This document shows positions 8,420 to 41,298 of a stretch of DNA of 54,524 bases, one piece after another; positions within the stretch are counted from its first letter, which is position 1; every line of letters starts with the position of its first letter. The notes below the pieces were generated by a model. The model was given only the letters and a program-made list of their open reading frames with translations, had not been told where the DNA came from and did no database searches. A program made the translations under genes and the position numbers. The DNA comes from Thermoanaerobaculia bacterium (GTDB taxonomy: Bacteria > Acidobacteriota > Thermoanaerobaculia > Gp7-AA8), in contig JBKJVD010000177.1 of assembly GCA_046590585.1 (NCBI GenBank), forward strand, positions 1 through 54,524, written 5' to 3'.

Positions 8420-8433
8420 TCGGGTCTGGCAGA

Positions 8434-15842: not shown

Positions 15843-16952
15843 ATGCCTCTGCGTCCATCGTTCACCCTCGGGATCGAAGAAGAGTTTCAAGTCGTCGATC
15901 CGGTGACCCGCGAACTCAAGTCGCACATTCAGGAGCTGTTCAACGAGGGTGAGCGCCGGCTCAAGGAAGAGATCAAGCGCGAGATGCATGACGCGGTGAT
16001 CGAGGTCGGCACCCCGATCTGCCAGGACATCAAGCATGCTCGGCGCGAGGTCACGCGACTCCGGCGAGAGATCTGTACGCTCGTTCGCGAGGCTGACCTC
16101 CGGATCGCCGCGGCGGGAACGCACCCGATCAGCCACTGGAAGGACGTCGCCATCACGGACGCTCCGCGCTACGACAAGATCCTCTTCGACCTTCAGGTCG
16201 TCGCCCGTGGCAATCTCGTGTTCGGCCTGCACGTCCACGTCGCCATCGAGGATCTGGAGACGCGCATCCAGATCATGAACGCGGCTCGCTACTTTCTGCC
16301 GCACATCTTTGCGCTGTCGGTGAACTCGCCGTTCTGGTGCGGATCGAACACCGGCTGGAAGAGCTACCGCTCCAAGGTCTTCGAACGGTTTCCCCGAACC
16401 GGCATGCCCGACTTTTTCCGTTCGGCGAGTGAGTTCGACGAGTACGTCCAGCTGCTCATCAAGACCAACTGCATCGACAACGCGAAGAAGATCTGGTGGG
16501 ACGTCCGCCCCCATCCATTTTTTCCGACGCTCGAATACCGCATCTGCGACGTGCCGATGCGTATCGACGAAACCATCTGCTTCGCCGCACTCTTCCAGGC
16601 GGTGACCGTGAAGCTCTGGAAGCTCTACTCGCGCAACATGGGGTGGCGTCTCTACCGCCGCTCGCTGCTCAATGAGAACAAGTCGCGCGCCGCGCGCTTC
16701 GGAGCGGACGCAATGCTGGTCGACTTCGGGAGGAGCACGGAAGTTCCGTTCACGGAACTGCTCGACGAGCTGCTCGAATTCGTCGATGACGTCGTCGACG
16801 AGCTCGGGTCACGCGAGGAATGCTATTACGCTCGTGAGATCGTGAAGCATCGCACCGGCGCCGATCGCCAGCTCGCCGTCTTCGAAAAAACGAACGACCT
16901 CAAGGCGGTAGTCGACTACATCGTCGAAGAAACGGAACACGGGGTCTTCTAA
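15843..16952 (+). CDS. Carboxylate-amine ligase, GCS2 family (YbdK-like)
   Basis: The N-terminal FTLGIEEEFQVVD motif is diagnostic of the glutamate-cysteine ligase family 2. GLHVHV and WWDVRP motifs are also present. Confidence 0.85.
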   Translation: MPLRPSFTLGIEEEFQVVDPVTRELKSHIQELFNEGERRLKEEIKREMHDAVIEVGTPICQDIKHARREVTRLRREICTLVREADLRIAAAGTHPISHWKDVAITDAPRYDKILFDLQVVARGNLVFGLHVHVAIEDLETRIQIMNAARYFLPHIFALSVNSPFWCGSNTGWKSYRSKVFERFPRTGMPDFFRSASEFDEYVQLLIKTNCIDNAKKIWWDVRPHPFFPTLEYRICDVPMRIDETICFAALFQAVTVKLWKLYSRNMGWRLYRRSLLNENKSRAARFGADAMLVDFGRSTEVPFTELLDELLEFVDDVVDELGSREECYYAREIVKHRTGADRQLAVFEKTNDLKAVVDYIVEETEHGVF

Positions 16953-17058: not shown

Positions 17059-18069
17059 ATGATTCGTCGCGACATTCATCTGGACTACGACTTTTTCGAC
17101 TACACGCGGCTGGGAGATTCAGTCCCGGAGCCCGATCCAGGCTACATCGACGTTGCCCTGCTCGACATGAACCATTCGTGGCCCAACCTCGGCCACGACT
17201 CGATCGTCCACGCCCTCCTCGAGCTTGCCGAGGGGATGCGGGACCGCCTGGTTCCCGCAGGACTCAAGGTTCGCGTCCTCTCGTTCGATGTGCGCCGCAG
17301 GCTGCTGGTGCCCGGAGCCCATGACAGCCGGTTTGCCATGTACGTCGGAACCGGTGGTCCAGGTCATCTCGATCCCCGGCAGAACGACGGCGTCCACGAA
17401 TTCAGCCAGGGAATCGACGAATCTGCGGAATGGGAAGCGCCCCTGTTCCGCCTGTTCGACGCGATCGTAGGAGATCCGCAGCGGTCTCTCTTCGCCGTCT
17501 GCCACTCGTTCGGCCTGCTCTGCCGGTGGTCCGGGGTCGCTCGCGCCGAATTGCGCGAAGAGAAAAGTTCCGGCCTGCCCATGAACGTACTTTCCGCAGA
17601 TGGATTGAAGCATCCGTGGTTTTCGCGTTTCGCAGAGTCGCTCGCGGATCATCGCAGCTTCCGCGTGGTCGACAACCGTCTCTTCGACCTGGTCTGGGAA
17701 GGTGGTCGCGATGCCACTCCGATCTCGTTCGAGCGCGAGGGGAGCCCGGGATTGACGATGGTCGAACTGGCGCGCGACGCCGCCGACGGGATGCCGCGCG
17801 TGTTCGGCGTCAACCATCATCCCGAGATCATCGACCGCGAACACATCATGCAGGTTCTCGATGAGAAGCGGGAGCATGACGAGGTCTCAGAGACGTGGTA
17901 CCAGGAGCGCGCCGTCACGATGCGCGAACTGTTCGAAGGCGAGAACGAGCGGGAGAGCCGGCAGACATCCAGCTTCACGTTCCTCGAACCGATGCGTCAC
18001 CAGCTCGCCAGAAGCGTCTCGCAACGCATCGATGATCTCTCCCTCACGGCGCAACGTAACGGTAGATGA
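17059..18069 (+). CDS. Class I glutamine-amidotransferase-like protein
   Basis: Nucleophile elbow FAVCHSFGLL and a distal HHPE (His/Glu) pattern. Its last ~51 codons form the left copy of the direct repeat described in the findings. Confidence 0.65.
   Translation: MIRRDIHLDYDFFDYTRLGDSVPEPDPGYIDVALLDMNHSWPNLGHDSIVHALLELAEGMRDRLVPAGLKVRVLSFDVRRRLLVPGAHDSRFAMYVGTGGPGHLDPRQNDGVHEFSQGIDESAEWEAPLFRLFDAIVGDPQRSLFAVCHSFGLLCRWSGVARAELREEKSSGLPMNVLSADGLKHPWFSRFAESLADHRSFRVVDNRLFDLVWEGGRDATPISFEREGSPGLTMVELARDAADGMPRVFGVNHHPEIIDREHIMQVLDEKREHDEVSETWYQERAVTMRELFEGENERESRQTSSFTFLEPMRHQLARSVSQRIDDLSLTAQRNGR
17915..18069 (+). repeat. Direct repeat, left copy (functional 3' end of the GATase-like gene)
   Basis: Hand-aligned to 32786-32938. 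The first 33 nt are identical. A 6-nt versus 4-nt indel follows. The remaining ~116 nt carry 9 substitutions and include the stop codon. Confidence 0.9.
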
Positions 18070-18440: not shown

Positions 18441-21400
18441 ATGACTAACGGTGTGCGCAGAATTGGCCTTCTTCTCTGTGGTTTCGTGGGTGCAGTCTTC
18501 GCCGCCGGAACGGCGCAGGCGGACCTTCTCATTCAGCTCTCTCCCACCGAGCTCTCCCTGGCGCCCGGGCAATGTGGCAAGGTCACGATCACCTCCCAGC
18601 CGCAGCCTGGGTTCCCGGAGGGTGCGGCAAAGATTCGGTACGTGATCAACCGCATCTCGGGCGTCGATGTGATCGAGGCCAAAACAGCCGGTCCCGATTT
18701 TCCGCCTGTGGTGCTGTTGACCCCGGTGCACAACGCCGAGCCCGGGGCTCACTCCATGACCATTACCGCGCTCATCTCTGACAGCGCCGGAAATCAGATT
18801 GGCGACAAGATCTTTCCCGACGCCTTCACGATCACGATCGAGGCGCCGGCCAAGCTGCCTGAGTTCTCCTTCACGATCCCTGAATCCGTCGACGTGACGG
18901 CCGGCCAGGAGCTCGATGTACCGCTCGCATTACAGGCGGAGGGCTTCCAGGGGATGATGAACGTTCAGGCCCATCCGCCTCCGGGAATCTCCATCGATCA
19001 GCCGAGATTCACGATCAGCGCGGGCGAGGAGAAGATGATCCATGTCCGCGTCGCAGCGGATGCTCCGGAAAAAGGAACTCTGGAAGTTCAAGCGCAGACG
19101 AGTCTCGGCGGCCAGATGATTCTGAAGGTCTTCAGGGTCCAGGTCCGCGTTGCCAAAGCGGAGGCGGCTCCCGTCCCGCCAACTCCGCAGACGTCCGGAC
19201 CGGTCATCGGGTCGGGCGGCGAAGTTCGGTTCGAGCTCGACTCGACATCCGTCAATCTTCCGCCCGAAGGTGGCCAGCATCCATTGACGCTCACGATTGC
19301 CAGTGTGAACGGCTCCCATGGGACGGTGACCGTCGACACCAGTACGACCAACGCCGCGCTAAGCCTGGAGGGGAAGGACTGCACGCTTTCTCCCTACGAC
19401 TGCGTTCACGAACGGGTCGTCGAGATCGAACCGAATGGAGAAGTGAAACTGGAGTTTTTTGTCGTGGCCACGGCCCAGGTCGAAGAGATCGCCAAACAGA
19501 TGAACGGGGCCCGATCACTTCTGTTCCTGGCCAAGGCACCAGGGTTGGACACCAGGCGCCTCAGCTTCATCGTCGAGCTTCGCGCGGCCCCGACCCCTCT
19601 GAAAAAAGCGTATACGCTCTCGATCGATCCGCCGTCTCTCGAACTGGACGCGGGCGGCGAGGCCAGGACTGTCGAGATCCGCCTCACTCCCGCGGAAGGC
19701 TTCAACGAGGGAGTGGGCCTGACCTTTGACGGGTACAACACGAGTTCACCGGTTGAGTTGAAAAACTTCGGTCATGACGAGTCGATCTTTCAGGCAGGAC
19801 AATACGAGCCCAAGAAAGTGATCATTCAAGCCAGGGAAGGGGCGAAGCCAGGTCCCTTCTCCATGACCGTACGGGGTACGACGACCTACCAGGACGCACA
19901 CGAGCAGTCCTCGGTGAAACTCCCCATCACGATCAAAGAAGCGCTTGCCGCGACGCTGAAGATCGAGGCCGGAAACGCAGAGTTGTTCTATCCCGCGTGG
20001 AAGGACGTCAAGCTTCGCATCGAAGGGTCGAGAGGTTACTCGGGTCCGGTGACCGTGAAGGCTACCGAGACCGGTCCCTTCGAGGTGGTGCCGGATCGTC
20101 TTGAAGTGGCGTCGCTTCCTGCCACGGTGGATGTGCGCGTGCGCCTGCGACAGGCCGTGACGGGCAACACCGCCATCGAGTGGACCGTCTATGCTGCGAA
20201 CGAACGCCAACTCGCCGCGCAGAGGATTGCGTTCACGGCACTCGATCCGAAGCGCGGCGTGACGTTCACCGCACCCGCGGAGATGTCGATCTCTCCTGGC
20301 GAAGAAAAAAGCCTCGACATCGTGCTGCGCGGCGACACGTTCAAGGGTCCCGTCGACCTGATCCTCTCTCCCTCGAGCGCTCTAAATGTCATCGGCGCGC
20401 AAGTCGTCCGCACGGGGCCAGTCTCTGGCTCGCCTGCCCTGACGCTGCGCGTGCGAGCCAAACCAGACGCGACGATCGGCGAAGGTGGCCAGTCGCTCCG
20501 GCTGAACGTCAAGGCAATGTTTGGCAGCGACGAAGTGGAGATGGGCGAACACAGCATCCGGGTCCTGCTCGTCCCATCAGGCGGCGTCAAACCGGTCGAC
20601 TTCAACATCACGGTGAGCAAAACGCGCCTGGATTTGCTCCTTGGTACGGGCGAAAAAGTCACGGTCAACGTTCAACGCAACGGAGGTTGGGCCGGTCCGA
20701 TCGACTTCGAGATCAAGAACAACGACCACGTCACCGTCAACCCGGAAAAGTTCCGGCTGGAGGGATCTCAAAACTCGCAGGAAATCGAGATCTTCTCGCG
20801 TGTGAGCTTGTCAGAAGGTAGCGAAGACTCGCTCATCGTGACGGCCACGCCGTACGGCGGTGGCAGTGCGAAAGAGGCCTATATCGGCCTTCGGGCGTCG
20901 ACCCTCAAATTGCCCGAGTTCACCATTGCTACGACCCAGCCGAGTCTGCGCGTCCCGACCAATCGCCCGGGACGGATCACGGTGCGCGTAGCCGGCGTGA
21001 ATGGCTGGAACGGGCCGGTGACGCTCACGGTCGCCGACAAACCAGAGTGGTCCATCGTTCAGCCCGAGAGCGTCAACGTCGCGTCGCTTCCCGCGGAGGT
21101 GACCTTCGAGGTAACGCGAACACAGGATGAAGGAGACCCCTCGGATGTCGTGTTCTGGGGAACGGCCGGAACTACGGCGCAGAAGGCCCGGATACCGGTG
21201 CAGTTGATCGTTGGCGGAGGGCAACGCGGGCAACGCGGGACCGACGACGGCCCGTTCGGCGGCTTCCCCGCGCCTGAGGGTCCCCTGCTTTCGCTGCCGC
21301 AATCGCGCGCCGTCGCCGGGGACGTCAGGAGCTCCAACAGCCATGTGGAAGGGTTGGCTCAGGCAATGTCGACCCTGTCGGGCGCGGACATGCCAGCGGC

Positions 21401-22733
21401 AATCGCCATGCTTCAGTTGTATGAAGCGCTCCTTGCCGAAGGGCAGCGAATGGCGGGCATCCTGCCGGGTGACGAGGAGCGCGAGGAACTCAACGCTCAG
21501 CTCAATGCGGAAGTGCTGGCCAGTCAGATCGAAGAATATCGCCTCCATCCAGCGCAAGCGCGCTTCCAGACAGCGATGGTTGGTGGATTTCCCGGTTTCT
21601 TCCTGATCGAGTTGCGAGATTTTCAGCCATCCGATCTTGAAGACATCAAGATCGAGTTTTCGAAGCCGGTGAACTGGGCCACCGCGTCCAACAAAGTCGA
21701 GTTGCTCATTCTGCAGATGAGGTTCGCCCAGAAGGCGGACCAGCTCCAGGAAGACTGGACCGGACCGGCGCGCGAGCGTGTCGGACAACTGTCCGAGGGA
21801 ATCGACAGTCTTGCCGCGAAGCTCGACGAAATCACGCTGACGAAGAAAATGAAACTCGCTGACAAGGTGAAGTTCCTCGTCAGGCCTGTCGCAATCGCCG
21901 GAGCAATCTTCACCACCGCCGACATCGTGGCCAGATCAGTGGTCGCGTTCCTCCCCAACCAGATCAAGGAGTTCTACGCGCAGGTCGATAACCAGCATCG
22001 CGTGGAGGACGACAAAATCTTCCCGGTGATCAAGAAGGGAAAGAAGGTGCCCGTCAAGGTCTTCATCCTGACCAAGAACAAGGGAGGACGGATCGTCTCA
22101 CCGAAAGAGGTGGCCGACTTCTGCTACGGGAAGGTCACTGAGTCCCAGAAATTCAAGGACTGGTTCGACAAGAAGGCCGGGAGCGACAAAGCCGGCGGCG
22201 AAGGGATCTCGGACGCGGAACGCGAAAAAGCGAAAGACGAGATCCGCGCCGAGTTCTTGAAGAAGATCGAGAAGATTGCCGGCACCATCACCGGACTCCC
22301 TCCCATCAAGGAGTGGCTGGAATCCGGATGGGATGTAGCGTCGAAGGATCTCCCGGCAATTGAGGTCAACAGCAACCGCGTCTTGACGATGGAGAGTCTC
22401 TCGCCAGCCGTGCTCGCCGTTCGTGAAGCGCCTGGCTGCGAAGGCGAGCGATATTGCATGGAGGGTCTCGTCGAGACCAGGCCCGGCGAAACAGCGGGGT
22501 ATTTCTTCGCCTTCCGGAACAACCTCCGGAACGGTGTCCTGTCTGTCGTCCCAGGAGGACTCAAGGTCAACGTAAAGGCGGCCGTTATGGTGAAGGATCA
22601 GGAGGAAGTATCTTTCGAGCCGTGCTGGGTCCTCGACGGCATTGTTCACCGGGGCCAGATGCCACGCGACGTAAAGGGCGCAGCAGGACTTACCTTCGAC
22701 AAAGGCAAGACTTGCAGCTTAGGCCAAGGTTGA
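18441..22733 (+). CDS. Giant secreted protein A: signal peptide, about 8 Ig-like beta-sandwich repeats, and a ~500-aa C-terminal module of unknown family
   Basis: Signal peptide RRIGLLLCGFVGAVFAAGTAQA. Repeats of about 105 aa carry the recurrent motif G-(G/N)-(W/F/Y)-x-G-P-(V/I) (NGGWAGPIDF, VNGWNGPVTL, SRGYSGPVTV). The protein is collinear with the paralogue on the opposite strand. The start could also be the TTG at 18420. Confidence 0.85.
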   Translation: MTNGVRRIGLLLCGFVGAVFAAGTAQADLLIQLSPTELSLAPGQCGKVTITSQPQPGFPEGAAKIRYVINRISGVDVIEAKTAGPDFPPVVLLTPVHNAEPGAHSMTITALISDSAGNQIGDKIFPDAFTITIEAPAKLPEFSFTIPESVDVTAGQELDVPLALQAEGFQGMMNVQAHPPPGISIDQPRFTISAGEEKMIHVRVAADAPEKGTLEVQAQTSLGGQMILKVFRVQVRVAKAEAAPVPPTPQTSGPVIGSGGEVRFELDSTSVNLPPEGGQHPLTLTIASVNGSHGTVTVDTSTTNAALSLEGKDCTLSPYDCVHERVVEIEPNGEVKLEFFVVATAQVEEIAKQMNGARSLLFLAKAPGLDTRRLSFIVELRAAPTPLKKAYTLSIDPPSLELDAGGEARTVEIRLTPAEGFNEGVGLTFDGYNTSSPVELKNFGHDESIFQAGQYEPKKVIIQAREGAKPGPFSMTVRGTTTYQDAHEQSSVKLPITIKEALAATLKIEAGNAELFYPAWKDVKLRIEGSRGYSGPVTVKATETGPFEVVPDRLEVASLPATVDVRVRLRQAVTGNTAIEWTVYAANERQLAAQRIAFTALDPKRGVTFTAPAEMSISPGEEKSLDIVLRGDTFKGPVDLILSPSSALNVIGAQVVRTGPVSGSPALTLRVRAKPDATIGEGGQSLRLNVKAMFGSDEVEMGEHSIRVLLVPSGGVKPVDFNITVSKTRLDLLLGTGEKVTVNVQRNGGWAGPIDFEIKNNDHVTVNPEKFRLEGSQNSQEIEIFSRVSLSEGSEDSLIVTATPYGGGSAKEAYIGLRASTLKLPEFTIATTQPSLRVPTNRPGRITVRVAGVNGWNGPVTLTVADKPEWSIVQPESVNVASLPAEVTFEVTRTQDEGDPSDVVFWGTAGTTAQKARIPVQLIVGGGQRGQRGTDDGPFGGFPAPEGPLLSLPQSRAVAGDVRSSNSHVEGLAQAMSTLSGADMPAAIAMLQLYEALLAEGQRMAGILPGDEEREELNAQLNAEVLASQIEEYRLHPAQARFQTAMVGGFPGFFLIELRDFQPSDLEDIKIEFSKPVNWATASNKVELLILQMRFAQKADQLQEDWTGPARERVGQLSEGIDSLAAKLDEITLTKKMKLADKVKFLVRPVAIAGAIFTTADIVARSVVAFLPNQIKEFYAQVDNQHRVEDDKIFPVIKKGKKVPVKVFILTKNKGGRIVSPKEVADFCYGKVTESQKFKDWFDKKAGSDKAGGEGISDAEREKAKDEIRAEFLKKIEKIAGTITGLPPIKEWLESGWDVASKDLPAIEVNSNRVLTMESLSPAVLAVREAPGCEGERYCMEGLVETRPGETAGYFFAFRNNLRNGVLSVVPGGLKVNVKAAVMVKDQEEVSFEPCWVLDGIVHRGQMPRDVKGAAGLTFDKGKTCSLGQG

Positions 22734-22748
22734 AAACCAATTAAAGAT

Positions 22749-22778
22749 CTCGCCCCCGGGAACCTGCCCGGGGGCGAG
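22749..22778. terminator. Hairpin between the convergent giant genes (better terminator context for the minus-strand gene)
   Basis: CTCGCCCCCGGG-AACCTG-CCCGGGGGCGAG, a 12-bp perfect stem. On the minus strand it is followed by AGATCTTTAATTGGTTTTC. Confidence 0.6.
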
Positions 22779-22919
22779 GGGTCCTTCGGTCGCGCGGCCA
22801 GCCAGTGTTTCGGAAACCCGCTGCATCAGGTGCAGATTTGACGATCCGTTGAGCACGAACCGGCGGGTCGCCGATGCCGTGATCCGTCGCCGACGCCACG
22901 CCACGCGAGGAACCCGATT

Positions 22920-25900
22920 TCACGGCCGGTTCGACACGCATTCGCAGTTCTTCGTGATGATGCCGCCGCCCGCATACCCGAGAGCGATGTCGTGGACGGA
23001 CTCGTTCGGGAGTAGGCAGCGCTCTCCGACCGGCCCGAGGCTGCACGTACGCTGCGGAGGCGGCGTAACCTCGACAACGCCTTTTCGGAACAGCCCACAC
23101 TGCGGCGGCACGGTCGGATCGGACGGTTTCACACAAGGCAGGCCTTCGGTCGCTCGACCGAGAGCGATGATGAGCCACGGCTGCAGGCCATAGGAGTAGC
23201 CGGCGGTCTTACCGCTCTGCGTCGGCTTCAGACCCTCGATGTAGTAATGCCCCCTCGACCCTTCACCGAGCTTGATCAGCTCATTCGAACGATTGTTGTG
23301 CTGATTGTCATACTTCAATGACAGCACGCGCTCACTGTTGACGAGGAACGGCCCACGCTTATAGGGCTTGACGGTGATCGGCGCGTCGAGCTTCTGCAAC
23401 CATTCCCGCAGGGCGGGGATGCCGGCGATCCGCTTGTTGATCTCCTCGAGGATCAGGTCCTTCAGGAAATCCTTACTGTCGAAGCCCGGGATTCCTTCAC
23501 TCAGCGCTGCCTCATCTGCTTCCTGCTTCGCGTCGTTGCCCGGCGTCGTCACCTTGCCGACTCCCTTCTTCCTGCCGGCCACCTTGATTCGTCCCTTCAT
23601 TTTCTCCCACACAGGCTTGGCAACGAGTTCCGCGATCTGCGAGAGGCGGACGACTTCGCCACCGGTGGACCTGGCTGTCATGTAGACCTTCAAACTGGCC
23701 TGCGTTCCCTGCATGACCTGCGGGTCTGGCGCATCGGGCCGTTTCGAATAGCCGCCGACATTCGAGTACAGCTCAGCGATGCGGGACGGAATGATTCGCA
23801 ATTGCGCTTCCGACAGGATGTGAATGATGCTGATCGCTGTGGCGGTGGCGGACAGCGTCTTCACGGCCACCTGCCATTGTTTCAGAGTAATCTTGTCGAG
23901 TCCCCACGCCTCGATGCGATCGTTTGTCTCTTTCAGCACGTCGTTGACGATCGCGGTGTTGTTCGCCGCGACGGCGTTCTGGTTGGCCAGCCGCATCATG
24001 TTGACCAGAATTTCGACCGGCTCATGGCCACGCGCCAGGTCCCTCCAATCGACTTTGCCGCTCTTGATGTCGTTGTACATCTCCTTGTTCTCGGCCATGG
24101 AGCTGAAGTCCATCGCGAAGAGGAACGGGAACTGCCCGAGCGACGCGATCTGGAAGGGCGGTGGCAGATTCGCGCGGTTGCGACGCAGGCCACCGCGGAT
24201 GAAAAGCCTGACAATTTCGTCATCGAGAGCCGCCTCGGAGACGCGTGGCAACGTCGCACCGTGCAAGCCGAGGGATGCCTCCTCCTCAGGGTTGAGCGGC
24301 GTGCCGTTGTGGAGCTCGGCCAGCAGGGCGCTCTGCGCATTGGAGAACGCGATGAGCAACTCGATCTGCTCCGGATCGAGAACATCCTCGCCCGCTGCCG
24401 CGGCGGCCGCTGCCATACCGGTAAACGCCGCCGCGGCGTCGTCTGCCGCCGCCATCGACTTCGGAAAGGCGTCGACGCCGGCGAACGGTTCGCCCTGAGG
24501 CGCGGAAACAGGCTCCCGATGCTGCGCCCCGGGCCCGTCTTCGTCGCCGATCACACCGGTAGGAATCTGCGGCTCGATCCATTGTCCTTTTCTCGAATCC
24601 GCGACCACCACCATAGGGAGAGTTGCTGTCCGTGTCGCGCCGTCAGCGGCGACGGCGGTAACTCGCAGCGTTGCGTTTCCAGGCTGGTCCGCCGCAGTGA
24701 CCTCGACCGTCGGTTCGGATCCGGCCCTGAGCTCGCAGCAAGCCTGGCCCGGCCTCGGTTGGAGGAGCCGCTCGAGGCGTAAAGGAAATTCTATTGGCTG
24801 GATGCTCACTCCGCCGCCTTCGACGGTGACCGTGACCTTCAGGATTACGTCGACCGGCGATGACTTTGTGGCGCCTTGAGCCTTTGCGTAAACCGAAATG
24901 GACTTCTTTTGTCCCACGGTAATTCTGAGGGGCGGGGTGATCTTGCCGCCAAGAGCCTCTGCGAGGATCGGATCGTCGAACTCGGTCGTGCCTTCCGGCT
25001 GACGGGCGGTTTGCGGCGGAGGCGGCTGCTCGACGCTCCACTTCTGATTGCCGCCATCCCAGCACGGGCGAAGAATCACTGCGTGCGTTGGATCGCTCGC
25101 GTTGGGCTCCATGCACTTTACGAACTCGCGGCCGATGAGACGGCTCGACGAGTCGAACGTCCACGTTTCGTTCATGTTGCCGCTGTTGCTGCAGGTCCAG
25201 AGAATGATCGGCGTGTCGTCGGTTGTCTGGTTGGAGGTGAGAACGGCGCACTTGCCGCCATTCTGGATCTCGCCGTTCGGACCGAAGGTGAACGTCTGCG
25301 CCTCGACGAGCGATCCGCAGGCGGCCATCACCAGATGCGCTCCGTCGCCGTGCCCGTTGTTCTCGATGGTCAGGCAGTTTCCGTACTCGCGGTTCTTCAA
25401 CATGCCCGAGGCGGCCGGGAAGTGTCTGGCGAGTTTGGCCGTCTTGATCGCCAGCCCCACATACGCTTCTCGCGACGGGCCGCCGCCATCGGGCGACGCT
25501 TTCACCATCAGCGACGGCTCTACGCCGGCGGTCAGGGCGGCATCGCCGCGCGCGGTCACTTCGAACTCCTGCGACGCTCGTCCGGCGTCGAGGCGGAATC
25601 GATCGGGGCGGATGGTGACCTTGTCGTTCCCGCTCACTACCACATCGACGGCGCCGTTCCAGCCACTGCCCCGACGCACCGACAGCGTCACGCCCCCGCT
25701 TTGTCCGGGCAGCAGCTCCAATCGGCTCGGATCGACGGCCACCGTGAAGTCCGCCGCTCCGGCTTTGACCTCGGAACGGATATTCGTCTCGGCGATGAGA
25801 TTGCGATTGGCATGCGCGCGCACTTTGACGTTGACGTATGCGTAGTGATCGGGAGCGGCATTGGGAAGGGCCTTGACCGTGATCTCATGACTTCCCGGAA

Positions 25901-27227
25901 GATGATCGATGGCGAAGCTCTCTTCGCTGACTGTCGTCCCTCCTGCGCTTCCTTTCGCCGTTACGTCGACCGCGCCGCTCCATCCGTTTTCGCCTTTGAC
26001 GGTAATCTGTACTCGCCTCTCTTCGCCCGGTGACAGCTCGAATGCGCCGGGTTCGACGAGCACGCTCGCCGTGGCGTCGCGGTCGGCGATGTTGATCTTC
26101 AATGACGACGACGGAGAGTCGGACGCAAATGCTTCGCCTCCGGCTGCGCCCGTGATCTTCATTTCGAATTCGCCCGGCGCGGCGTCGCCTGCAGCGCGCA
26201 CTGTGATTCGCTTCGGTGCTGTGTCGGCGCTCTGAAAAACATCCTGCTCATACTCGGTTTGCCAGGGCACGCGCGGATCGTGACCTTCCCATCTCAACGC
26301 AACGCCGTTCGTGAAGTCCGCCGCGCGTGTCAGGTGTACTTCGATCGTTTTTACCTCGCCCGGTTTCAGGGTGATGTTGTCGGGCTTGATGGCGATTGAA
26401 AACCCCTTGCCCCCGGGAACCTGCGGCGGCGGTGTTGAGACTGTCGCACCAGCCAGTTTGATATTGACCGTCACAGCCTCGCCGATCGGCTGGTTCGCGC
26501 TGTTGTATGGCGTAATCGGCCAGTCGAGACCTTCCGGCGCCATCTCCGCCTTTTCATGCGCGCGAATGGTGAATTTCGCGTCGGTGTAGGAGCCATCCGG
26601 TTGTTTCTTCACCTTGATGTTGCAGAGGTCAGCGATGACGTGCGTCCCCATGACGGCGAAGCTCCAGCGAACCTCGGGGTCCTGGCAGTCGCCGTTCGTG
26701 TGCACGACGACTTGAGTCCCTTTGAAGTCCCTCGTCAACTCGATGGCCGCCGGTTCGACCGTAGCCGTGCAGGGAACTGAGGGAGCCGGTGCTGCGTCAG
26801 TGACGCTCAACCGGACGATGCCGAACATGAAATCAATGGAATTACCGGGCGTGTCCTCGAAGGAGCCCCACAGCGGGCCGCTGTAGCGCCCTGCCGGGAC
26901 GTTCGACGGGACGGTGATCGTGACCATCACCGAAGACATGGTGTTGTCGCTGCGCGTCGACGTCTGCGGCGAGTCCGTCGTGATGCCGACTTGCTGGCCG
27001 CTCGCGGAGGTGAGGTCGAGTTTGTAGACGACCGACGTGACGCCAGGGGGAGTATTGGTGTTCGTCAGTGTATTGACGGTGATGGTCTCCGCGGTGCCGG
27101 CGGCCATGGTGAAGTTGTTCGGCGTCACGGTTACATCGAACTGCGCCTGCGCCGATGCGCTGACACTCCACCCAATGCACCCCAGCATGAATGCCGCAGC
27201 GAGACACACGAAACGAGACGAGCGCAT
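22920..27227 (-). CDS. Giant secreted protein B: signal peptide, Ig-like repeats, ricin-type beta-trefoil lectin insert, and a paralogous ~490-aa C-terminal module
   Basis: AGGAGA RBS. Signal peptide MRSSRFVCLAAAFMLGCIGWSVSASAQA. Repeat motifs ENGWSGAVDV and GSGWNGAVDV. Hand alignment to protein A is collinear along the whole length. Confidence 0.85.
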   Translation of the reverse strand: MRSSRFVCLAAAFMLGCIGWSVSASAQAQFDVTVTPNNFTMAAGTAETITVNTLTNTNTPPGVTSVVYKLDLTSASGQQVGITTDSPQTSTRSDNTMSSVMVTITVPSNVPAGRYSGPLWGSFEDTPGNSIDFMFGIVRLSVTDAAPAPSVPCTATVEPAAIELTRDFKGTQVVVHTNGDCQDPEVRWSFAVMGTHVIADLCNIKVKKQPDGSYTDAKFTIRAHEKAEMAPEGLDWPITPYNSANQPIGEAVTVNIKLAGATVSTPPPQVPGGKGFSIAIKPDNITLKPGEVKTIEVHLTRAADFTNGVALRWEGHDPRVPWQTEYEQDVFQSADTAPKRITVRAAGDAAPGEFEMKITGAAGGEAFASDSPSSSLKINIADRDATASVLVEPGAFELSPGEERRVQITVKGENGWSGAVDVTAKGSAGGTTVSEESFAIDHLPGSHEITVKALPNAAPDHYAYVNVKVRAHANRNLIAETNIRSEVKAGAADFTVAVDPSRLELLPGQSGGVTLSVRRGSGWNGAVDVVVSGNDKVTIRPDRFRLDAGRASQEFEVTARGDAALTAGVEPSLMVKASPDGGGPSREAYVGLAIKTAKLARHFPAASGMLKNREYGNCLTIENNGHGDGAHLVMAACGSLVEAQTFTFGPNGEIQNGGKCAVLTSNQTTDDTPIILWTCSNSGNMNETWTFDSSSRLIGREFVKCMEPNASDPTHAVILRPCWDGGNQKWSVEQPPPPQTARQPEGTTEFDDPILAEALGGKITPPLRITVGQKKSISVYAKAQGATKSSPVDVILKVTVTVEGGGVSIQPIEFPLRLERLLQPRPGQACCELRAGSEPTVEVTAADQPGNATLRVTAVAADGATRTATLPMVVVADSRKGQWIEPQIPTGVIGDEDGPGAQHREPVSAPQGEPFAGVDAFPKSMAAADDAAAAFTGMAAAAAAAGEDVLDPEQIELLIAFSNAQSALLAELHNGTPLNPEEEASLGLHGATLPRVSEAALDDEIVRLFIRGGLRRNRANLPPPFQIASLGQFPFLFAMDFSSMAENKEMYNDIKSGKVDWRDLARGHEPVEILVNMMRLANQNAVAANNTAIVNDVLKETNDRIEAWGLDKITLKQWQVAVKTLSATATAISIIHILSEAQLRIIPSRIAELYSNVGGYSKRPDAPDPQVMQGTQASLKVYMTARSTGGEVVRLSQIAELVAKPVWEKMKGRIKVAGRKKGVGKVTTPGNDAKQEADEAALSEGIPGFDSKDFLKDLILEEINKRIAGIPALREWLQKLDAPITVKPYKRGPFLVNSERVLSLKYDNQHNNRSNELIKLGEGSRGHYYIEGLKPTQSGKTAGYSYGLQPWLIIALGRATEGLPCVKPSDPTVPPQCGLFRKGVVEVTPPPQRTCSLGPVGERCLLPNESVHDIALGYAGGGIITKNCECVSNRP
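25029..25412 (-). other. Ricin-type beta-trefoil lectin domain (CBM13-like) inside protein B
   Basis: Three subrepeats have a G-x-C-hydrophobic start and a QxW-like end: GNCLT..EAQTFTF, GGKCAV..NETWTF and FVKCME..NQKWSV. Confidence 0.75.
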
Positions 27228-27389: not shown

Positions 27390-27404
27390 TGGCTGCCCAT
27401 TTGC
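27390..27404 (+). promoter_or_regulatory. Candidate sigma-54 (-24/-12) promoter of giant gene C
   Basis: TGGCTG-CCCAT-TTGCG compared with TGGCAC-N5-TTGCW. The GG/GC spacing is correct and both the TGGC and TTGC cores are intact. It lies about 70 nt upstream of the ATG at 27475. Confidence 0.5.
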
Positions 27405-27474: not shown

Positions 27475-30400
27475 ATGCCGATTCAAATTCGTCGAGTGTT
27501 TTCGTGCGTGACGATGGTCCTGTTGCTGCTCTGCGCCGGCAGCGTTCACGCGCAGGGACGAGTGAAAGAAGATCGGGAAACCCCTGTTGCCATTTGGCCG
27601 GACGATCCCTCCGACAGCCGTGGGGATCGCCGCGGAAATGATCCCCAACACCTGCCCGGAGAGGACTCCACTCTTTTCCCCAGTCCCAACGCTGGAACGT
27701 TCACGCTCGAGCCGAGCAACCTCTCTGTCCAGCTCACCAAGGGGATCACCACCTCCATCAACATCCGCGTCATTCCCAGCGGAGGTTTCAGTGATCCAGT
27801 TCAGATCACGACCTCTGGCTCCATTCAGGGCGGGAACGTATCGAACAGTCCAGCCATCATTTCGCCGCCGTACGATCAGACCTCGACGATCTTACTGTCG
27901 GCGACCAACGCCACGCCTTCCGGGCAATACTCGATCAGCATTCTCGGTCAGGCCGGAACCACGACCGTCAGTACGGGACTGTTCGTCAATGTGGTGGCCG
28001 CAGGGGAAGCCACGTTCGGGTTCTCTCTTTTTCCCAACAATGTGGATGTCGTCAAGGGCAGTGGGTTTGCAACGAGCGTCGAGACGTTTACAACCGGCAG
28101 TTTCACCACGCCCATCAACTACTCGATCAGCGGTCTTCCGGCCGGGGTCACCGTAACCGGCCTGCCTCAGACCCTGCAGGCCCCCTACGCCGACATTCCC
28201 GTCGTCTTTTCAGCCACGTCGAGCGCGGTGCCCGGCACCTATACGACAACCGTAGTTACCGGAACGGCTGGCAGCCTGACCTTGACGAAACCGGTCACCA
28301 TCGTGGTGCGGGGCACGGCTGTCGGCGAATACAGCTTCCATGTCGATCCCGTGCCGATCTTCGTGACCGCGGGCGGGCGTCAACTCCTCACGCTCACAGT
28401 CACGTCGTTCGGCGGCTTCTCCGGCGTCGTTACCGTGAATCACGCCGAGTCCCATCCGTCGATCTTTGTCTTGAACAAGAACTGTCCTCTGTCAGGCGGC
28501 CCTTCGTGCCCAATCCAGAACATTCCGCTCAATGTGCCGGCCGGCGGCAGCGTTTCGGAACAAGTGCTCGTGTCCGTCACACCGACCTCGCCAGGCGGAT
28601 CGATCATATTCACGACTTCCACGCCGGGCCTTCCTGACGAGGTTTCAACCTACAGCGTGGATATCGGCGCGCAACCCCCGGGTTTCGACCTCCACGCGGA
28701 CCCTGTCAATCCGACGATTGCCCAGGGTCAAAGCCGTCAGATCACAGTCACGCTCACACGCCTCGACGGCTTCACCGGCGCGGTGCCCGTCGAAGTCACG
28801 GCGCAACCTGGATTCACCTTTGCCGAGCCTCTTCCGATTATCTTCGCTCCGGGAGAGACCTCCAAACCCCTGACGCTCCAGGTCGGCGCAAGTGTGACCC
28901 CCGCGACGAATTACACGGTCAATCTCTTCGCTAGTGTGCCGTCGATCTCCGCCTCAACGGGTGCAACCATTGTCGTGAACGTCACGCCGGCGCCGTCAGC
29001 AGGTAATTTCTTTCTGTTCCCCACTCCGGGCACCATCACGGCCCAACAGGGACAGAGCGGCACGACCACGATCAACCTCACTCGTAGTGGAGGATTCACC
29101 GGCCCCGTCACCGTGGATGCCACCATCGCCGGGGGCCCGGTTGCCGGCTCGGGCTACACCATCACGCCTGCCCTTCCCTTTACCTTCGCCGCTGGAGAGA
29201 CCACGAAGCAGGTCACGATCACTCCCGACACCACCGTCCCGGTGGGAACACACACGGTCACCTTCATGGGCACGGCCAGCGGCATCGGGACCAGGAACTG
29301 TAATGTGCTGGTCAACGTGACGGCCGCGCCGTTAGTCCCGGACTTCACATTCGCAGTCACGCCGAATCCGGTCTCCGTGACGCAGAACGCCAGCACGACC
29401 GCGACCGCCACCATCACGCGAAGCGGTGGCTTCAACGGCGACGTGAATGTCAGCGGTACGACCGGCGCACAGGGAGTGACGATCGGCTCAGTCACGATCC
29501 CCGCCGGCCAGACGACCGCAACGCTCACGATCGTCGCAACGTCCAGCGCGACGACCGGCCCCTCCACCATCAACTTCAGCGCGGCCGCGCCCAGCATCCC
29601 CAAGACTCTGACCTCCGTCATCAACCTGACGGTCGTCGCACAACAGGCTCCGGCCGACTTCACGATCAACGTCGCTCCATCAGAGATTCAGGTCAACGCG
29701 GGTGGAACCGGCCTGGTCACCATGACTCTCACCCGCCAGAATTTCACCGGCAATGTCACCGTCAATGCAACAGGCGGCGCCGGCATCACGATCACGCCCC
29801 AGACGTTCACGTTCAGCGGTACGACGACGCAGGCCTTCAACATTCTCGTAGCCCCCGACGCCCCGGCCGGACGCACGCCGATCTCGTTCACCGCGACTTC
29901 GACCGCTCTCCCTGGCGTGACCCGTTCCGCGAGCGCGGGAGTGACCGTAATTCCTGTGAGCACCGGTGCCCCGATCATCAGCTCGATCACGCCGTCCGCG
30001 CTCGTGGCTGGCGCACAGAGAGCTGTGGTCGTTCTCGCCGGTCGCAATTTCGTGGCCGGAGCGCAGATCTTCTCCAATCGAACGGACGTGGTCGTCGAGA
30101 GCGCGGAGATTCAATCCGACTCGATCGCAATCGTTGTCGTCACCGTGAATCCCTTCGCTGAAGCCGGCCCAACGACGTTCCGCCTGCGGAATCCAAACGG
30201 TCTGACCACCGCGCAGGGAGTCGAGTTGATCGTCTACGAGGAGGGTGACATCGGAGCGCCCCTCGGCGTGACCGCTGCCGCGATTCTCAGTCCTCTCGGC
30301 GGGAAGATCGTCACCAACGTGGATCGTCCCTACGCCACCGGCGTCGTCGCGACCTCGGGAACCGGCACGATCAGCGGCCGCTGGCTGTTCGACGGCGGCA

Positions 30401-32721
30401 CGTTCGACAGTTTCACGATCACCGTTTCCGCCGGTGAGCCGGCCATGGTGACCTCGCGCGTTCCGCTGCCGTCATCGCACGCCGGACCCCACCAGCTTCA
30501 ACTCGTGATCGATGTGCCGCAACAGGCGCAGTCCGCCGCCATTGCCATTCGTATGGCCATCGATAGCGCGAGCAATCTGACCATCCTCGGCCCGGTCGGC
30601 CAGAGCGGAGGCTCGGGAAACGCGGGCGACGCAATGACCCTCCGCTGGTCGATGGTCCCCGGCGCCCAGGGTTACGTCGTCGAGCTGACCCGCGAGGGAC
30701 AGCCGTTCCCGTCCCAGGTTGAAGTCGGACAGGAAGCGGAATTGCCGATCGATGCCGCCGATCTGCCCACCGGCGGCGGCCCGGTTCGTTGGCGCGTTGC
30801 ACCGATGTACTGTTGCTCGGGCAACGACTCCTATGCCGGGACGTTCTCCGATTGGAGCGACCTGCCACTCGATCGAAGCGCACGCGGGGAGCGCGAGCTG
30901 TTCGAATCGATCCGCGACACGGCCATCGCCGAGGCGATGACGCCACGACTGAAGTATCAGCTCGCCCGTCTCGCCGCGAGCGACAGTGACGAGAACTTGT
31001 TGCTCGATTCGTCCACCTACCAGCTCGCCCAGGGAACAGCGCCTGCCCGTACCGGCGCAGCAGGAACGAAATCGAGCCTGCGCTCCGACTGGTCCGTCGT
31101 TCCGATGGCCACCTCGACGTACACCCGTCACGCGACCGATCAGGATGGCTCGATCCAACTCTCGGGTCAGGGCGATCTGGGACTCCCGCCGCTTGCCAGC
31201 AAGTACACGACCGACTTCACTGGAGCGAACATTTACGGTGACGACTTCACCTTCCGGGGCAGCCGCAACTGGATTGTGAACGTCGGCAATGCCAAAGCAT
31301 CAAAGCGGGTCATAAGACCGGAGGCGACCTTTGGCTATGGTCCACCGGACTTCTTCCGCGGAGCGCAACTGGTGACTTCATCGCTGGCGCGTGGGGGTGC
31401 CCTCGGGCGCGTCTCCACCCGCTTCGGCTCCCTTGCGTATTACTCAACCTTCACCGACGCGCTCGACGGAGTCATCGGCGGCAACTTCGGGATGCAGCAG
31501 AAGCTCGATGCCGTGGCGCTCGAATTCCATGAAACGAAGAAGCTCTCGTTCAAGATCATCAGCATGCACGTCGAGGACCTTCCGCTGGCGAGCCAGAGCG
31601 CTCCGCGGGGCGAAGGACGTTCGCTCGGGTTCCTGACCTCGTACAAAGTGAGCCCGAAGCTGCAGCTCGTGGCCGAGGCTTCCCGCGGACGAGGAGAATG
31701 GACCACGCGCGACGGACTGCGCGAGCGCGAAGGGGACGCCTTCCGCATCGGAATGTCGGGCATGCGCGGAAGGACCTCGTACCGCGCCGATTTCAATCAC
31801 ACCGACAGCGACTACGCCAACCCAGGCAACCGTGGCTTCACGGCGGCGTCCATTCCGAACCGCACGGGAGGAAGCCTGAGTATCACCCGCCCCGTCGGTC
31901 GCGGCTCCGCCACCCTGGCCTTGAAACATCAGACCCAGACCCGGTCGTCCATTACCGCGGACGCTACGGGACTGAATTTGTCGTACAACCTGCAACTGAA
32001 GCCGTCCGTCAGTCTGAGTGCGACGGCGAACACGAACGTCGACTCGGCCGACGCGGACACGCAGAGGCGCCTGCCAGGGACCGATCGCCAGCAGCGCGGC
32101 GGCACAGTCACCCTGTCCGAGCGATACGGCCGTCTCAACCTCTCGCAGACTCTCGCCCATCAACGGCTGAACGACGATGTGAATCTGAGCGCGACGAACA
32201 ACGTCACCACGCTCACACTCAGCGGCGGCGGGACAATCGTGCCGAACTTCAATCTCTTCGCCACGTCGACGGTCATTCACAGTGCCGCCGCGCCGACCGT
32301 TGGCGACGGCGACAACATAACGTTCTCATTGCAGCCATCCTTCGCCATACCCCGACTCAATCTGTCGCTGCAGCCGCGCCTGTCGTACAACTTCAACGAC
32401 AATGATTTCCGCCGCACCAGCAATCGGGGCGAGCAGTACGCGGCGCTGATGCAGTGGAGTCCGGACTGGTTCAACAAGATCGGAGCGTTACAGCTCTCTT
32501 CGAACTGGAACCGCACCGAGGATGAACTGCAGGGACGCACGAACCGTTCGCTGAACCGCTCGTACGTCGGCACGTTCACGCTGAAGTGGGGCGAAGGAGT
32601 CGGTGCCGACATGTTTCGCCGCCACAAGCTGCCCGGTGAGCTGCCGGTTACCGGCCGCCAGGGTGCCAGCCAGGATCCGATCAATGGCAGAACGTCCGCG
32701 ACGGCGGGCTCCAGGAAGTAA
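27475..32721 (+). CDS. Giant outer-membrane protein C: signal peptide, at least 7 Ig-like repeats, IPT/TIG domain, further beta-sandwich domains, and a large C-terminal beta-barrel
   Basis: AGGGGGA RBS. Signal peptide VFSCVTMVLLLLCAGSVHA. Repeat motifs (SGGFSDPVQI, FGGFSGVVTV, LDGFTGAVPV, SGGFTGPVTV, SGGFNGDVNV) recur every ~105-115 aa. The C-terminal ~500 aa show alternating-hydrophobic strands. Confidence 0.85.
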   Translation: MPIQIRRVFSCVTMVLLLLCAGSVHAQGRVKEDRETPVAIWPDDPSDSRGDRRGNDPQHLPGEDSTLFPSPNAGTFTLEPSNLSVQLTKGITTSINIRVIPSGGFSDPVQITTSGSIQGGNVSNSPAIISPPYDQTSTILLSATNATPSGQYSISILGQAGTTTVSTGLFVNVVAAGEATFGFSLFPNNVDVVKGSGFATSVETFTTGSFTTPINYSISGLPAGVTVTGLPQTLQAPYADIPVVFSATSSAVPGTYTTTVVTGTAGSLTLTKPVTIVVRGTAVGEYSFHVDPVPIFVTAGGRQLLTLTVTSFGGFSGVVTVNHAESHPSIFVLNKNCPLSGGPSCPIQNIPLNVPAGGSVSEQVLVSVTPTSPGGSIIFTTSTPGLPDEVSTYSVDIGAQPPGFDLHADPVNPTIAQGQSRQITVTLTRLDGFTGAVPVEVTAQPGFTFAEPLPIIFAPGETSKPLTLQVGASVTPATNYTVNLFASVPSISASTGATIVVNVTPAPSAGNFFLFPTPGTITAQQGQSGTTTINLTRSGGFTGPVTVDATIAGGPVAGSGYTITPALPFTFAAGETTKQVTITPDTTVPVGTHTVTFMGTASGIGTRNCNVLVNVTAAPLVPDFTFAVTPNPVSVTQNASTTATATITRSGGFNGDVNVSGTTGAQGVTIGSVTIPAGQTTATLTIVATSSATTGPSTINFSAAAPSIPKTLTSVINLTVVAQQAPADFTINVAPSEIQVNAGGTGLVTMTLTRQNFTGNVTVNATGGAGITITPQTFTFSGTTTQAFNILVAPDAPAGRTPISFTATSTALPGVTRSASAGVTVIPVSTGAPIISSITPSALVAGAQRAVVVLAGRNFVAGAQIFSNRTDVVVESAEIQSDSIAIVVVTVNPFAEAGPTTFRLRNPNGLTTAQGVELIVYEEGDIGAPLGVTAAAILSPLGGKIVTNVDRPYATGVVATSGTGTISGRWLFDGGTFDSFTITVSAGEPAMVTSRVPLPSSHAGPHQLQLVIDVPQQAQSAAIAIRMAIDSASNLTILGPVGQSGGSGNAGDAMTLRWSMVPGAQGYVVELTREGQPFPSQVEVGQEAELPIDAADLPTGGGPVRWRVAPMYCCSGNDSYAGTFSDWSDLPLDRSARGERELFESIRDTAIAEAMTPRLKYQLARLAASDSDENLLLDSSTYQLAQGTAPARTGAAGTKSSLRSDWSVVPMATSTYTRHATDQDGSIQLSGQGDLGLPPLASKYTTDFTGANIYGDDFTFRGSRNWIVNVGNAKASKRVIRPEATFGYGPPDFFRGAQLVTSSLARGGALGRVSTRFGSLAYYSTFTDALDGVIGGNFGMQQKLDAVALEFHETKKLSFKIISMHVEDLPLASQSAPRGEGRSLGFLTSYKVSPKLQLVAEASRGRGEWTTRDGLREREGDAFRIGMSGMRGRTSYRADFNHTDSDYANPGNRGFTAASIPNRTGGSLSITRPVGRGSATLALKHQTQTRSSITADATGLNLSYNLQLKPSVSLSATANTNVDSADADTQRRLPGTDRQQRGGTVTLSERYGRLNLSQTLAHQRLNDDVNLSATNNVTTLTLSGGGTIVPNFNLFATSTVIHSAAAPTVGDGDNITFSLQPSFAIPRLNLSLQPRLSYNFNDNDFRRTSNRGEQYAALMQWSPDWFNKIGALQLSSNWNRTEDELQGRTNRSLNRSYVGTFTLKWGEGVGADMFRRHKLPGELPVTGRQGASQDPINGRTSATAGSRK
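29965..30237 (+). other. IPT/TIG-like domain within protein C
   Basis: PIISSITPSALVAGAQRAVVVLAGRNFVAGAQIF....TFRLRNPNGLT matches the usual IPT/TIG pattern (P-x-I-x-S-I-x-P, G-x-N-F). Confidence 0.6.
31069..32589 (+). other. Predicted outer-membrane beta-barrel region of protein C
   Basis: Many 8-12-residue amphipathic strands separated by G/N/D/S/R turns (SLSITRPVG, ATLALKHQT, GLNLSYNLQL, SVSLSATAN, TVTLSERYG, LNLSQTLAH). A beta-signal-like last strand, YVGTFTLKW, is followed by a 43-aa charged tail. Confidence 0.55.
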
Positions 32722-37191: not shown

Positions 37192-37304
37192 TGCGATCTC
37201 CCGAGTGCCCTCGATTCTATGAGGGCTGGTGGCAGGAACCGTCTTCGGATGCGGTTTCGGCACACGCTGGTTGTGAATCCGTGACAGCGGTGGTGCCGCT
37301 CGTC

Positions 37305-41183: not shown

Positions 41184-41298
41184 GTTCGTGCGCGGGGAAA
41201 GTATCAGATTCGCGGGCGATCTTTCAGCCGCTTCGTTCAATCGATCTTCCAGACGCGCTGCGGACCGCCATCCGGCTCTCACATACAATCGCGGCGAA

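Follow-up and report, generated by a model that had tools for sequence, protein, structure and literature searches.

The stretch of DNA analysed here (the window) comprises 54,524 nucleotides of contig JBKJVD010000177.1 from a Thermoanaerobaculia bacterium (Acidobacteriota) and carries three giant genes, which we call A, B and the partner. A and B converge and end in a common C-terminal module of about 470 residues that resembles no described family, and the partner, which is divergent from B, encodes a protein whose C-terminal part looks like an outer-membrane barrel. Genes bearing the module adjoin a homologue of the partner in six independent loci, and it is this linkage, together with a Cys-containing tail that closes the module, on which our interpretation is built. 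The main elements of the window are as follows.

18441-22733, forward strand: gene A, 1430 residues counted from the ATG at 18441
21309-22733, forward strand: C-terminal module of A, about 473 residues plus stop, delimited by hmmsearch with the family profile A2
22920-27227, reverse strand: gene B, 1435 residues, identical to database protein P0001
22920-24458, reverse strand: C-terminal module of B, about 510 residues plus stop, delimited by hmmsearch with profile A2 and by BLASTP against A
25038-25409, reverse strand: ricin-type beta-trefoil lectin domain of B, residues 607-730 (PF00652, E=6e-19, 68.8 bits against a cut-off of 29)
22749-22778, no strand: GC-rich hairpin of 12 pairs in the gap between A and B
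27475-32721, forward strand: partner gene, 1748 residues from the ATG at 27475, divergent from B

Mechanical listing of open reading frames (ORFs) begins gene A at TTG 18420 and the partner at GTG 27427. Database protein P0002, which is identical to A, begins at ATG 18441, and this is likely to be the true start. For the partner, ATG 27475 gives a canonical signal peptide (MPIQIRRVFSCVTMVLLLLCAGSVHAQG), and GTG 27427 is probably too early. Both A and B open with a Sec signal peptide followed by immunoglobulin-like (Ig-like) repeats, which occupy about 900 residues in each protein and give only weak Pfam matches (Cep192_D3, fn3_5/6 and ASH). In A the repeats run into a linker rich in Gly, Arg and Pro and then into the module; in B they are interrupted by the single ricin-B lectin, after which come more Ig-like domains, an Ala-rich linker and the module. 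A weak NCBIfam match to choice-of-anchor-T also lies in B. Lipoprotein anchoring of B was considered and rejected, as its MLGC is a poor lipobox and an AxA signal-peptidase I site comes after it. The stop codons of the two genes are 186 bp apart, the gap holds no ORF, and the hairpin within it is likely to be a bidirectional terminator.

Sequence comparison shows that A and B are homologous in their C-terminal parts, which form a module of about 470 residues. BLASTP aligns them over 345 residues at 26% identity (E=3e-16), and a MAFFT alignment of the full module gives 27%. These comparisons and the family profile bear out the shared module of unknown family that had been proposed in a first-pass annotation of this DNA, and the limits given there (21222-22733 in A, 22920-24395 in B) fall within about 90 nt of those set by the profile of 18 family members, alignment A2 (about 21309-22730 in A and 22923-24458 in B). 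The landmarks it had listed occur in A and B, and most are kept across A2: the Ala/Leu-rich helix AFLxAYxALIAEL, the hydrophobic stretch that closes at the invariant Pro of FLPNxIxxFY, and the motifs (L/I)Pxx(K/R)xWL, (V/I)NSxRVL and YxIxGL...G..AGY. Three details need correction. The Lys-rich segment is present, but as a variable insertion of low model confidence and not as a conserved landmark. The hydrophobic stretch had been called helical-hairpin-like; the predicted structure shows a single 32-residue helix that passes directly into a beta-strand. Finally, the Cys-containing end is conserved as a terminal tail, but the TCSLG string reported from both proteins is not: the terminal KTCSLGQG of A pairs in the alignment with the terminal KNCECVSNRP of B, B's own TCSLG lies about 35 residues upstream, and the two strings are not positionally homologous. 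In A, the bases immediately before the module (21222-21308) encode a linker rich in Gly, Arg, Pro and Asp, for example GGGQRGQRGTDDGPFGGFPAPEGP, and an equivalent linker precedes the module in most relatives of the Ig or lectin type; it is probably disordered and could serve as a hinge or as a site of processing.

The family is small. Searched exhaustively with HMMER, 1.84 billion cluster representatives yielded 23 proteins at E<=0.001, A and B among them. A word-index homologue search found no relative with A's module and only P0019 with the 18-sequence profile, and scans of public genome contigs and metagenomes with the module alignment found none. Neither module matched Pfam or NCBIfam even at E<=10, PDB sequence searches with single sequences and with the 18-sequence profile gave no relevant match, and a Pfam scan of the 18 aligned members brought up neither a recurrent weak match nor a toxin family. 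The Pfam and NCBIfam models for PEP-CTERM, LPXTG, the type IX secretion system (T9SS) C-terminal domain, GlyGly-CTERM and SLH matched none of A, B and nine relatives. Thus the earlier remark that the module matches no toxin, enzyme or anchor family holds in Pfam, NCBIfam, PDB and Foldseek searches, and no confident match to a known non-effector domain, including any known anchor family, came to light.

Alignment A2 defines the family by a series of hallmarks. From the N-terminus these are (V/L)(E/D)GL, AFLxAYxALIAEL, a helix Glu (E133) and the hydrophobic helix, rich in small residues, that leads to FLPNxIxxFY; there follow a beta-meander with SPGGxIxTP, then (I/V)NSxRVL, YxIxGL...G..AGY and GVVxV, and at the end a Pro-rich linker and the Cys tail. 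P218, G388, G395, A398, G399, V428, E133, Y225 and C471 are invariant or nearly so. Within A2 there is no conserved constellation of His, Asp, Ser, Cys or Lys, and E133 and Y225 are the only near-invariant polar residues, a set that does not look like that of an enzyme.

In every full-length relative the module occupies the extreme C-terminus, and the parts in front of it vary. P0004, P0005, P0006 and P0014 have Ig-like repeats only; P0008, P0010, P0012 and P0013 have Ig-like repeats and three ricin lectins, as does the full-length form of P0013 in locus L015; P0019 has ricin lectins alone; and P0018 has nine choice-of-anchor-D repeats (NF012200, E=4e-120). In P0007, P0015-P0017 and P0022 the N-terminal part is an unannotated two-Cys repeat. 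Its unit of about 70 residues, C.DPW...GxGxxGECDxxRYGGGxWxxYxDLVxKV, has no Pfam or NCBIfam match and is a second unannotated domain found ahead of the module. Fusion of the module to several other scaffolds had been anticipated as a signature of polymorphic toxins; the fusions exist, but their pattern is the reverse of that signature, with a constant C-terminal module and variable N-terminal parts, and it is instead the pattern of C-terminal anchor or secretion domains.

A usable AlphaFold model of the module was obtained with the 18-sequence alignment as input, whereas A and B alone gave a mean predicted local distance difference test score (pLDDT) of 32, which was unusable. The usable model has a mean pLDDT of 71 and a predicted template modelling score of 0.66; 276 of its 476 residues reach a pLDDT of 70 or more, and about 90 are of low confidence. 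N-terminal helices are followed by a low-confidence region (53-110) and by three long helices (131-216), of which the last is the hydrophobic one; beyond these lie a confident beta-meander (220-264), four helices (267-341), a confident beta-domain (343-450) and the tail. Compared by Foldseek with 350,542 PDB chains, this model reached an E-value of 0.2 at best and TM-scores (template modelling) below 0.15, with no toxin among the matches, and a search of BFVD gave no match. Judged from this model and from the profile searches, the module has no detectable relative, either by sequence or by whole-domain fold. The hydrophobic helices of the two proteins are placed as follows.

21855-21950, forward strand: hydrophobic helix of A, LADKVKFLVRPVAIAGAIFTTADIVARSVVAF, helix 185-216 of the model, ending at the invariant Pro of FLPNQIKEFY
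23787-23870, reverse strand: hydrophobic helix of B, VAVKTLSATATAISIIHILSEAQLRIIP, with a Kyte-Doolittle maximum of 1.60 at B residue 1120

In A the Kyte-Doolittle maximum is 1.66, and over most of its length helix 185-216 is modelled with pLDDT in the 80s to 90s. In 16 of the 18 members no other 19-residue window is as hydrophobic as this segment; its values, between 1.1 and 2.0, are borderline. The segment is rich in Ala, Gly, Thr and Val, carries conserved acidic and basic residues four positions apart (AD..AK) and is preceded by basic residues. A buried core helix is the simplest reading of the model; the helix might conceivably also insert into membranes upon a conformational change.

The end of the module differs from the rest of it in its content of Cys.

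22596-22733, forward strand: C-terminal tail of A, whose two Cys lie 36 and 6 residues before the C-terminus
22923-23135, reverse strand: Cys-rich tail of B, its last 71 residues containing six Cys

A Pro-rich linker and then a Cys tail form the end of 23 of 24 members. The last 90 residues contain 2, 4, 6 or 8 Cys in 22 of these 24 and three in one more; the last Cys usually lies 5 residues from the C-terminus, and the preceding 380 residues of the module carry only 0-3. With Cys that are even in number in so many members and few elsewhere in the module, the tail suggests that the protein closes in a short element, probably disulfide-bonded, within an oxidising, extracytoplasmic compartment. 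A C-terminal disulfide loop has been described in HMW1 and HxuA, where it locks the exoprotein inside its TpsB transporter's pore (PMC5422565).

The partner protein opens with a signal peptide and continues with about nine Ig-like repeats; its C-terminal region of about 850 residues is conserved, and in it beta-sandwich domains and a predicted helix precede a beta-rich part of about 550 residues. This last part is rich in Gly, Ser, Thr, Asn and Arg, lacks a hydrophobic helix (maximum Kyte-Doolittle 1.0) and contains strands with a dyad repeat and, close to its end, the conserved strand YxGTFTL(K/R)W; a variable Pro-rich tail trails it. In these features the C-terminal part looks like an outer-membrane barrel. 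Neither the partner nor its homologues matched Pfam, NCBIfam or PDB; in particular, no POTRA/Omp85 signature was found in them with Pfam and NCBIfam, and the C-terminal 585 residues of the partner gave no Pfam match to the Autotransporter beta-domain at E<=10. According to hhalign, the module is not homologous to any part of the partner. The partner family is itself rare, with seven clusters. One segment of the partner homologue in locus L009 matches the PACE-CTERM putative S-layer protein at E=0.003, below significance.

A gene bearing the module stands next to a partner homologue in the window and in five other loci, with records of the same locus counted once (L003 includes L004 and L007, and L012 includes L014).

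Window: B and the partner are divergent; this partner is the reference for the identities below
L003, metagenome-assembled genome GCA_016184115.1 ("Acidobacteria bacterium NC_groundwater_304"): P0006, then the partner, then an extracytoplasmic function (ECF) sigma factor; partner 63% identical over 1248 residues
L012, GCA_900218215.1: module gene, then the partner, then an ECF sigma factor; partner 66% identical
L008, Joint Genome Institute (JGI): a divergent ECF sigma factor, then P0008 and the partner; partner 38% identical (E=1e-179)
L009, farmland metagenome: a divergent kinase and ECF sigma factor, then the partner and P0005; partner 31% identical (E=4e-98)
L015, a 562-kb JGI contig: a divergent kinase and ECF sigma factor, then a B-type protein with three lectins and the partner; partner 41% identical

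In five of the six loci the two genes lie on one strand, with gaps of about 40-190 bp, and in four the partner is the downstream gene. The linked module genes are of different subtypes (B, P0006, P0008 and P0005), and outside the window each locus has a single family member beside its partner. The loci in which a partner was found by itself (L011, L013, L016 and L017) are cut by contig ends or hold a very distant homologue, and none of them is a clean counterexample. Upstream of P0018, the most divergent long member of the family, locus L006 has a gene (182-2239) for a protein of 685 residues that resembles an outer-membrane protein (OMP) and ends in Phe; BLASTP and hhalign detected no relation between it and the partner family.

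The linkage extends to regulators. A conserved ECF sigma factor, with 55-61% mutual identity, is found in L003, L008, L009, L012 and L015, and a Ser/Thr kinase, with 35-45% mutual identity, in L003, L009 and L015; no homologue of either was found in the window by tblastn. The window has instead a candidate sigma-54-type element.

27390-27404, forward strand: sigma-54-type -24/-12 element TGGCTGCCCATTTGC, about 70 nt upstream of the ATG of the partner, identified by consensus match only

This is the sole exact TGGC-N7-TTGC in the window, and a gene for a sigma-54 activator (37305-41378, reverse strand, 1357 residues) lies 5 kb from the partner. No similar element was found upstream of module or partner genes at the other loci. 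Judging from these neighbours, expression would be under envelope-type control, by the ECF sigma factor and Ser/Thr kinase at most loci and possibly by sigma-54 in the window.

B and P0006 are 51% identical in the Ig region and 29% identical in the module, and their partners are 63-65% identical, a contrast that fits diversifying selection or module swapping. Grouped by module, A falls with P0004 and P0005, and B with P0006. In locus L005 a gene in tandem downstream of P0010 (6130-7503) is a mosaic: over its first 246 residues it matches A at 91% identity, and beyond them lie ricin lectins that are 83% identical to the lectin of B. The mosaic gene, the identity contrast between B and P0006 and the grouping of the modules together show that modules and arms are shuffled among paralogues, the module being either quick to diverge or exchanged.

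The reading that we favour, tentatively and at somewhat short of an even chance, is that the module is a docking or assembly domain which joins variable lectin and Ig-like arms to a dedicated outer-membrane partner. We lean towards it because the C-terminal position of the module is constant, the ectodomains are variable, catalytic residues are absent, a Cys tail is present, and the genes are linked to a partner and to regulators. The pairing of choice-of-anchor-D repeats with the module in P0018 also counts in favour of an anchor-type role, since choice-of-anchor domains were named for surface proteins that end in alternative anchor or sorting signals (bioRxiv 10.1101/2023.03.06.531300). The signal peptides of A, B and the partner bring both kinds of protein to the periplasm; on such a scheme the beta-rich C-terminal region of the partner would then insert into the outer membrane. 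The alpha/beta module of A or B would dock on or in the partner, with its variable N-terminal lectin and Ig-like arms pointing outward, and the Pro-rich linker and disulfide-bonded Cys tail could act as a stopper or latch, a step for which the disulfide loop of HMW1 and HxuA offers a functional precedent by analogy. Several observations weigh against docking. Gene A lacks a partner of its own; none lies nearby in loci L001, L002, L005, L006 and L010, most of which are on short contigs; and the neighbour of P0018 is the unrelated OMP-like protein. A, B and the partner match no known secretion or anchor family, and the barrel nature of the partner is deduced from its sequence alone (composition, lack of a hydrophobic helix and dyad strands). 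Moreover, a module that is only 29% identical between proteins whose partners are 63-65% identical is odd for a docking domain.

A serious rival, though rather an unlikely one, is that the module is a self-assembly domain of a surface layer or extracellular matrix, building a lattice or fibre in which the partner is a co-structural component and not a specific anchor or transporter. The mixed architecture of helical bundle and beta-sandwich, the lack of enzymatic residues, the Ig-like stalks in both proteins and an operonic linkage that fits co-assembly all agree with this idea, as do weak S-layer-type matches, namely short stretches of SbsC domains (Foldseek probability 0.7-0.8) and the PACE-CTERM match of the L009 partner. 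Every one of these S-layer matches is below significance, however; a family of 23 clusters is very rare, unlike the abundant S-layer proteins, and the deep divergence of module subtypes in related genomes speaks against a single lattice contact. It is unlikely that the proteins are membrane-active or pore-forming effectors, whose lectin and Ig-like arms would bind a target cell before the hydrophobic helix entered its membrane, A and B possibly cooperating. Such an effector would account for a conserved helix that is rich in small residues and is the most hydrophobic segment of nearly all members, for a module that has diverged more quickly than the remainder of the protein, in the manner of an arms race, and for the paralogue pairs in the window and in L005. 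Ricin-type lectins fused to a constant effector are, in addition, a known toxin layout, of which CEL-III is an example. The alpha-pore-forming toxin suggested by the first-pass annotation nevertheless found no support: Foldseek revealed no likeness to any solved pore-forming toxin, no Pfam toxin family occurs in any of the 18 members, and the hydrophobic element is no hairpin but a single helix of borderline hydrophobicity, in which an Asp and a Lys are conserved. The accompanying suggestion of a bipartite toxin encoded by adjacent paralogues fares no better, as A and B converge on a terminator-like hairpin and form no operon, and most other loci have a single member. A pore-former would also leave the linkage to a giant gene of surface or outer-membrane type, and to envelope regulators, unexplained.

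That the module is an enzyme or ligand-binding effector of a new class, for instance a hydrolase acting on polysaccharide held by the lectins, is improbable. Fusions of lectins to enzymes are common and the module is large enough for an active site, but no profile or fold match to any enzyme was found and there is no conserved catalytic constellation, only E133 and Y225 being near-invariant polar residues; on the absence of conserved catalytic residues an enzymatic role was rejected. Highly improbable, in turn, is an inner-membrane anchor in which the helix spans the membrane as a stop-transfer segment and leaves the last 250 or so residues in the cytoplasm. The length of the helix (about 30 residues) and Kyte-Doolittle values of up to 2.0 in some members would allow this. 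The stop-transfer anchor is unlikely because the hydrophobicity is borderline, the charges of AD..AK lie within the helix, basic residues precede it and the Cys tail follows: the basic residues stand N-terminal to the helix, on what would be the periplasmic side, in violation of the positive-inside rule, and an even-numbered Cys tail downstream implies an oxidising compartment. AlphaFold, moreover, packs the helix inside the domain with high confidence.

Among known systems, the arrangement can be compared with two-partner secretion (TPS, type Vb), and within it with the C-terminally anchored subfamily of HMW1/HMW1B and HxuA/HxuB. There, too, the gene for a large Sec-dependent adhesin or binding protein of the surface lies beside that for its outer-membrane partner, an adjacency seen here in six loci, and a C-terminal disulfide element holds the exoprotein at its transporter (PMC5422565); the counterpart here, known from sequence, would be the even-numbered Cys tail of 22 of the 24 members. 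In contrast to TPS exoproteins, A and B lack an N-terminal TPS/haemagglutination-activity domain (Pfam, full length), and the conserved element is instead a C-terminal alpha/beta domain of about 470 residues. The partner, unlike a TPS transporter, has no POTRA/Omp85 signature and itself carries a long Ig-repeat ectodomain. Since the TPS and POTRA features were looked for and are absent, module and partner would work like a tethered two-partner system but are not members of that family. Choice-of-anchor proteins (PEP-CTERM, LPXTG, T9SS and GlyGly-CTERM) likewise place a constant C-terminal element behind variable Ig-like or lectin ectodomains, but their sorting signals are 20-90 residues long and are read by sortases, exosortases or PorU, whereas the module is a folded, mixed alpha/beta domain of about 470 residues. 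The toxins ClyA, Hbl-Nhe and XaxAB-YaxAB share with it long helices and a hydrophobic segment near a beta element, and some are encoded as adjacent paralogues; they differ in that there is no sequence or fold match, the single helix of the module is broken by charges, stalks of 900 residues are fused to it, and the paralogues are convergent and their pairing is not conserved. In polymorphic toxin systems a conserved N-terminal delivery part precedes a variable C-terminal toxin, the opposite of the order found here, and the small immunity gene that follows directly downstream in such systems is absent from the 186 bp between the stops of A and B. The partner, for its part, resembles classical autotransporters (type Va) in its signal peptide, repetitive passenger, helix and C-terminal beta-rich region, but it has no Pfam match, its beta-rich part of about 550 residues is about twice the size of a 12-strand barrel, and it ends in a Pro-rich tail.

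The genes around the giant trio are ordinary chromosomal genes of 62% GC, among them those for an ATP-binding cassette transporter, an esterase, GCS2, CofD, a GlmU-like protein and the sigma-54 activator. Three of them precede A: 8038-9783, encoding an EgtB-like protein (DinB_2 and FGE-sulfatase); 15843-16952, encoding the GCS2 glutamate-cysteine ligase; and 17059-18069, an unannotated ORF of 336 residues immediately 5' of gene A. The EgtB-like protein and GCS2 may belong to a thiol or ergothioneine-type pathway, unconnected with the module. On the far side of the partner, 35866-37308 (reverse strand) encodes TPR repeats and two retropepsin-like aspartyl protease domains in one protein (PF13650, PF13975 and PF00077).

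No counterpart of the module, of the partner or of the gene module that they form is described in Pfam (2025), NCBIfam (2026), PDB (2026) or the literature searched. What is new lies at the level of the family and of the gene module; the function that we propose is inferred. That module and partner amount to an undescribed pathway of surface display or secretion at the outer membrane, present in Acidobacteria and a few other phyla, is less likely than not. Such a pathway would recognise its cargo through a C-terminal alpha/beta domain and not through an N-terminal TPS domain, use a Cys-knot stopper, carry an Ig-repeat ectodomain on its transporter or anchor, exchange its arms by recombination and be controlled by an ECF sigma factor and a Ser/Thr kinase.

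Soil and groundwater are rich in Acidobacteria, and to our knowledge almost nothing has been established about how they build their cell surface and attach to polysaccharides. Uncharacterised surface proteins in this phylum are unsurprising in themselves; the interest of the present family lies in the reproducible linkage of two families and in the terminal Cys "stopper", within a conserved gene module that unites a lectin or Ig-like protein bearing the C-terminal module with a giant partner of barrel-like appearance, an ECF sigma factor and a kinase. A profile and clear hallmarks now allow the family to be defined, and the docking hypothesis is directly testable. If the module is a membrane-active effector instead, it would represent a new toxin fold. 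If it serves for docking or secretion, it would give diderm bacteria a new means of displaying large adhesins and would also provide a portable tag for surface display.

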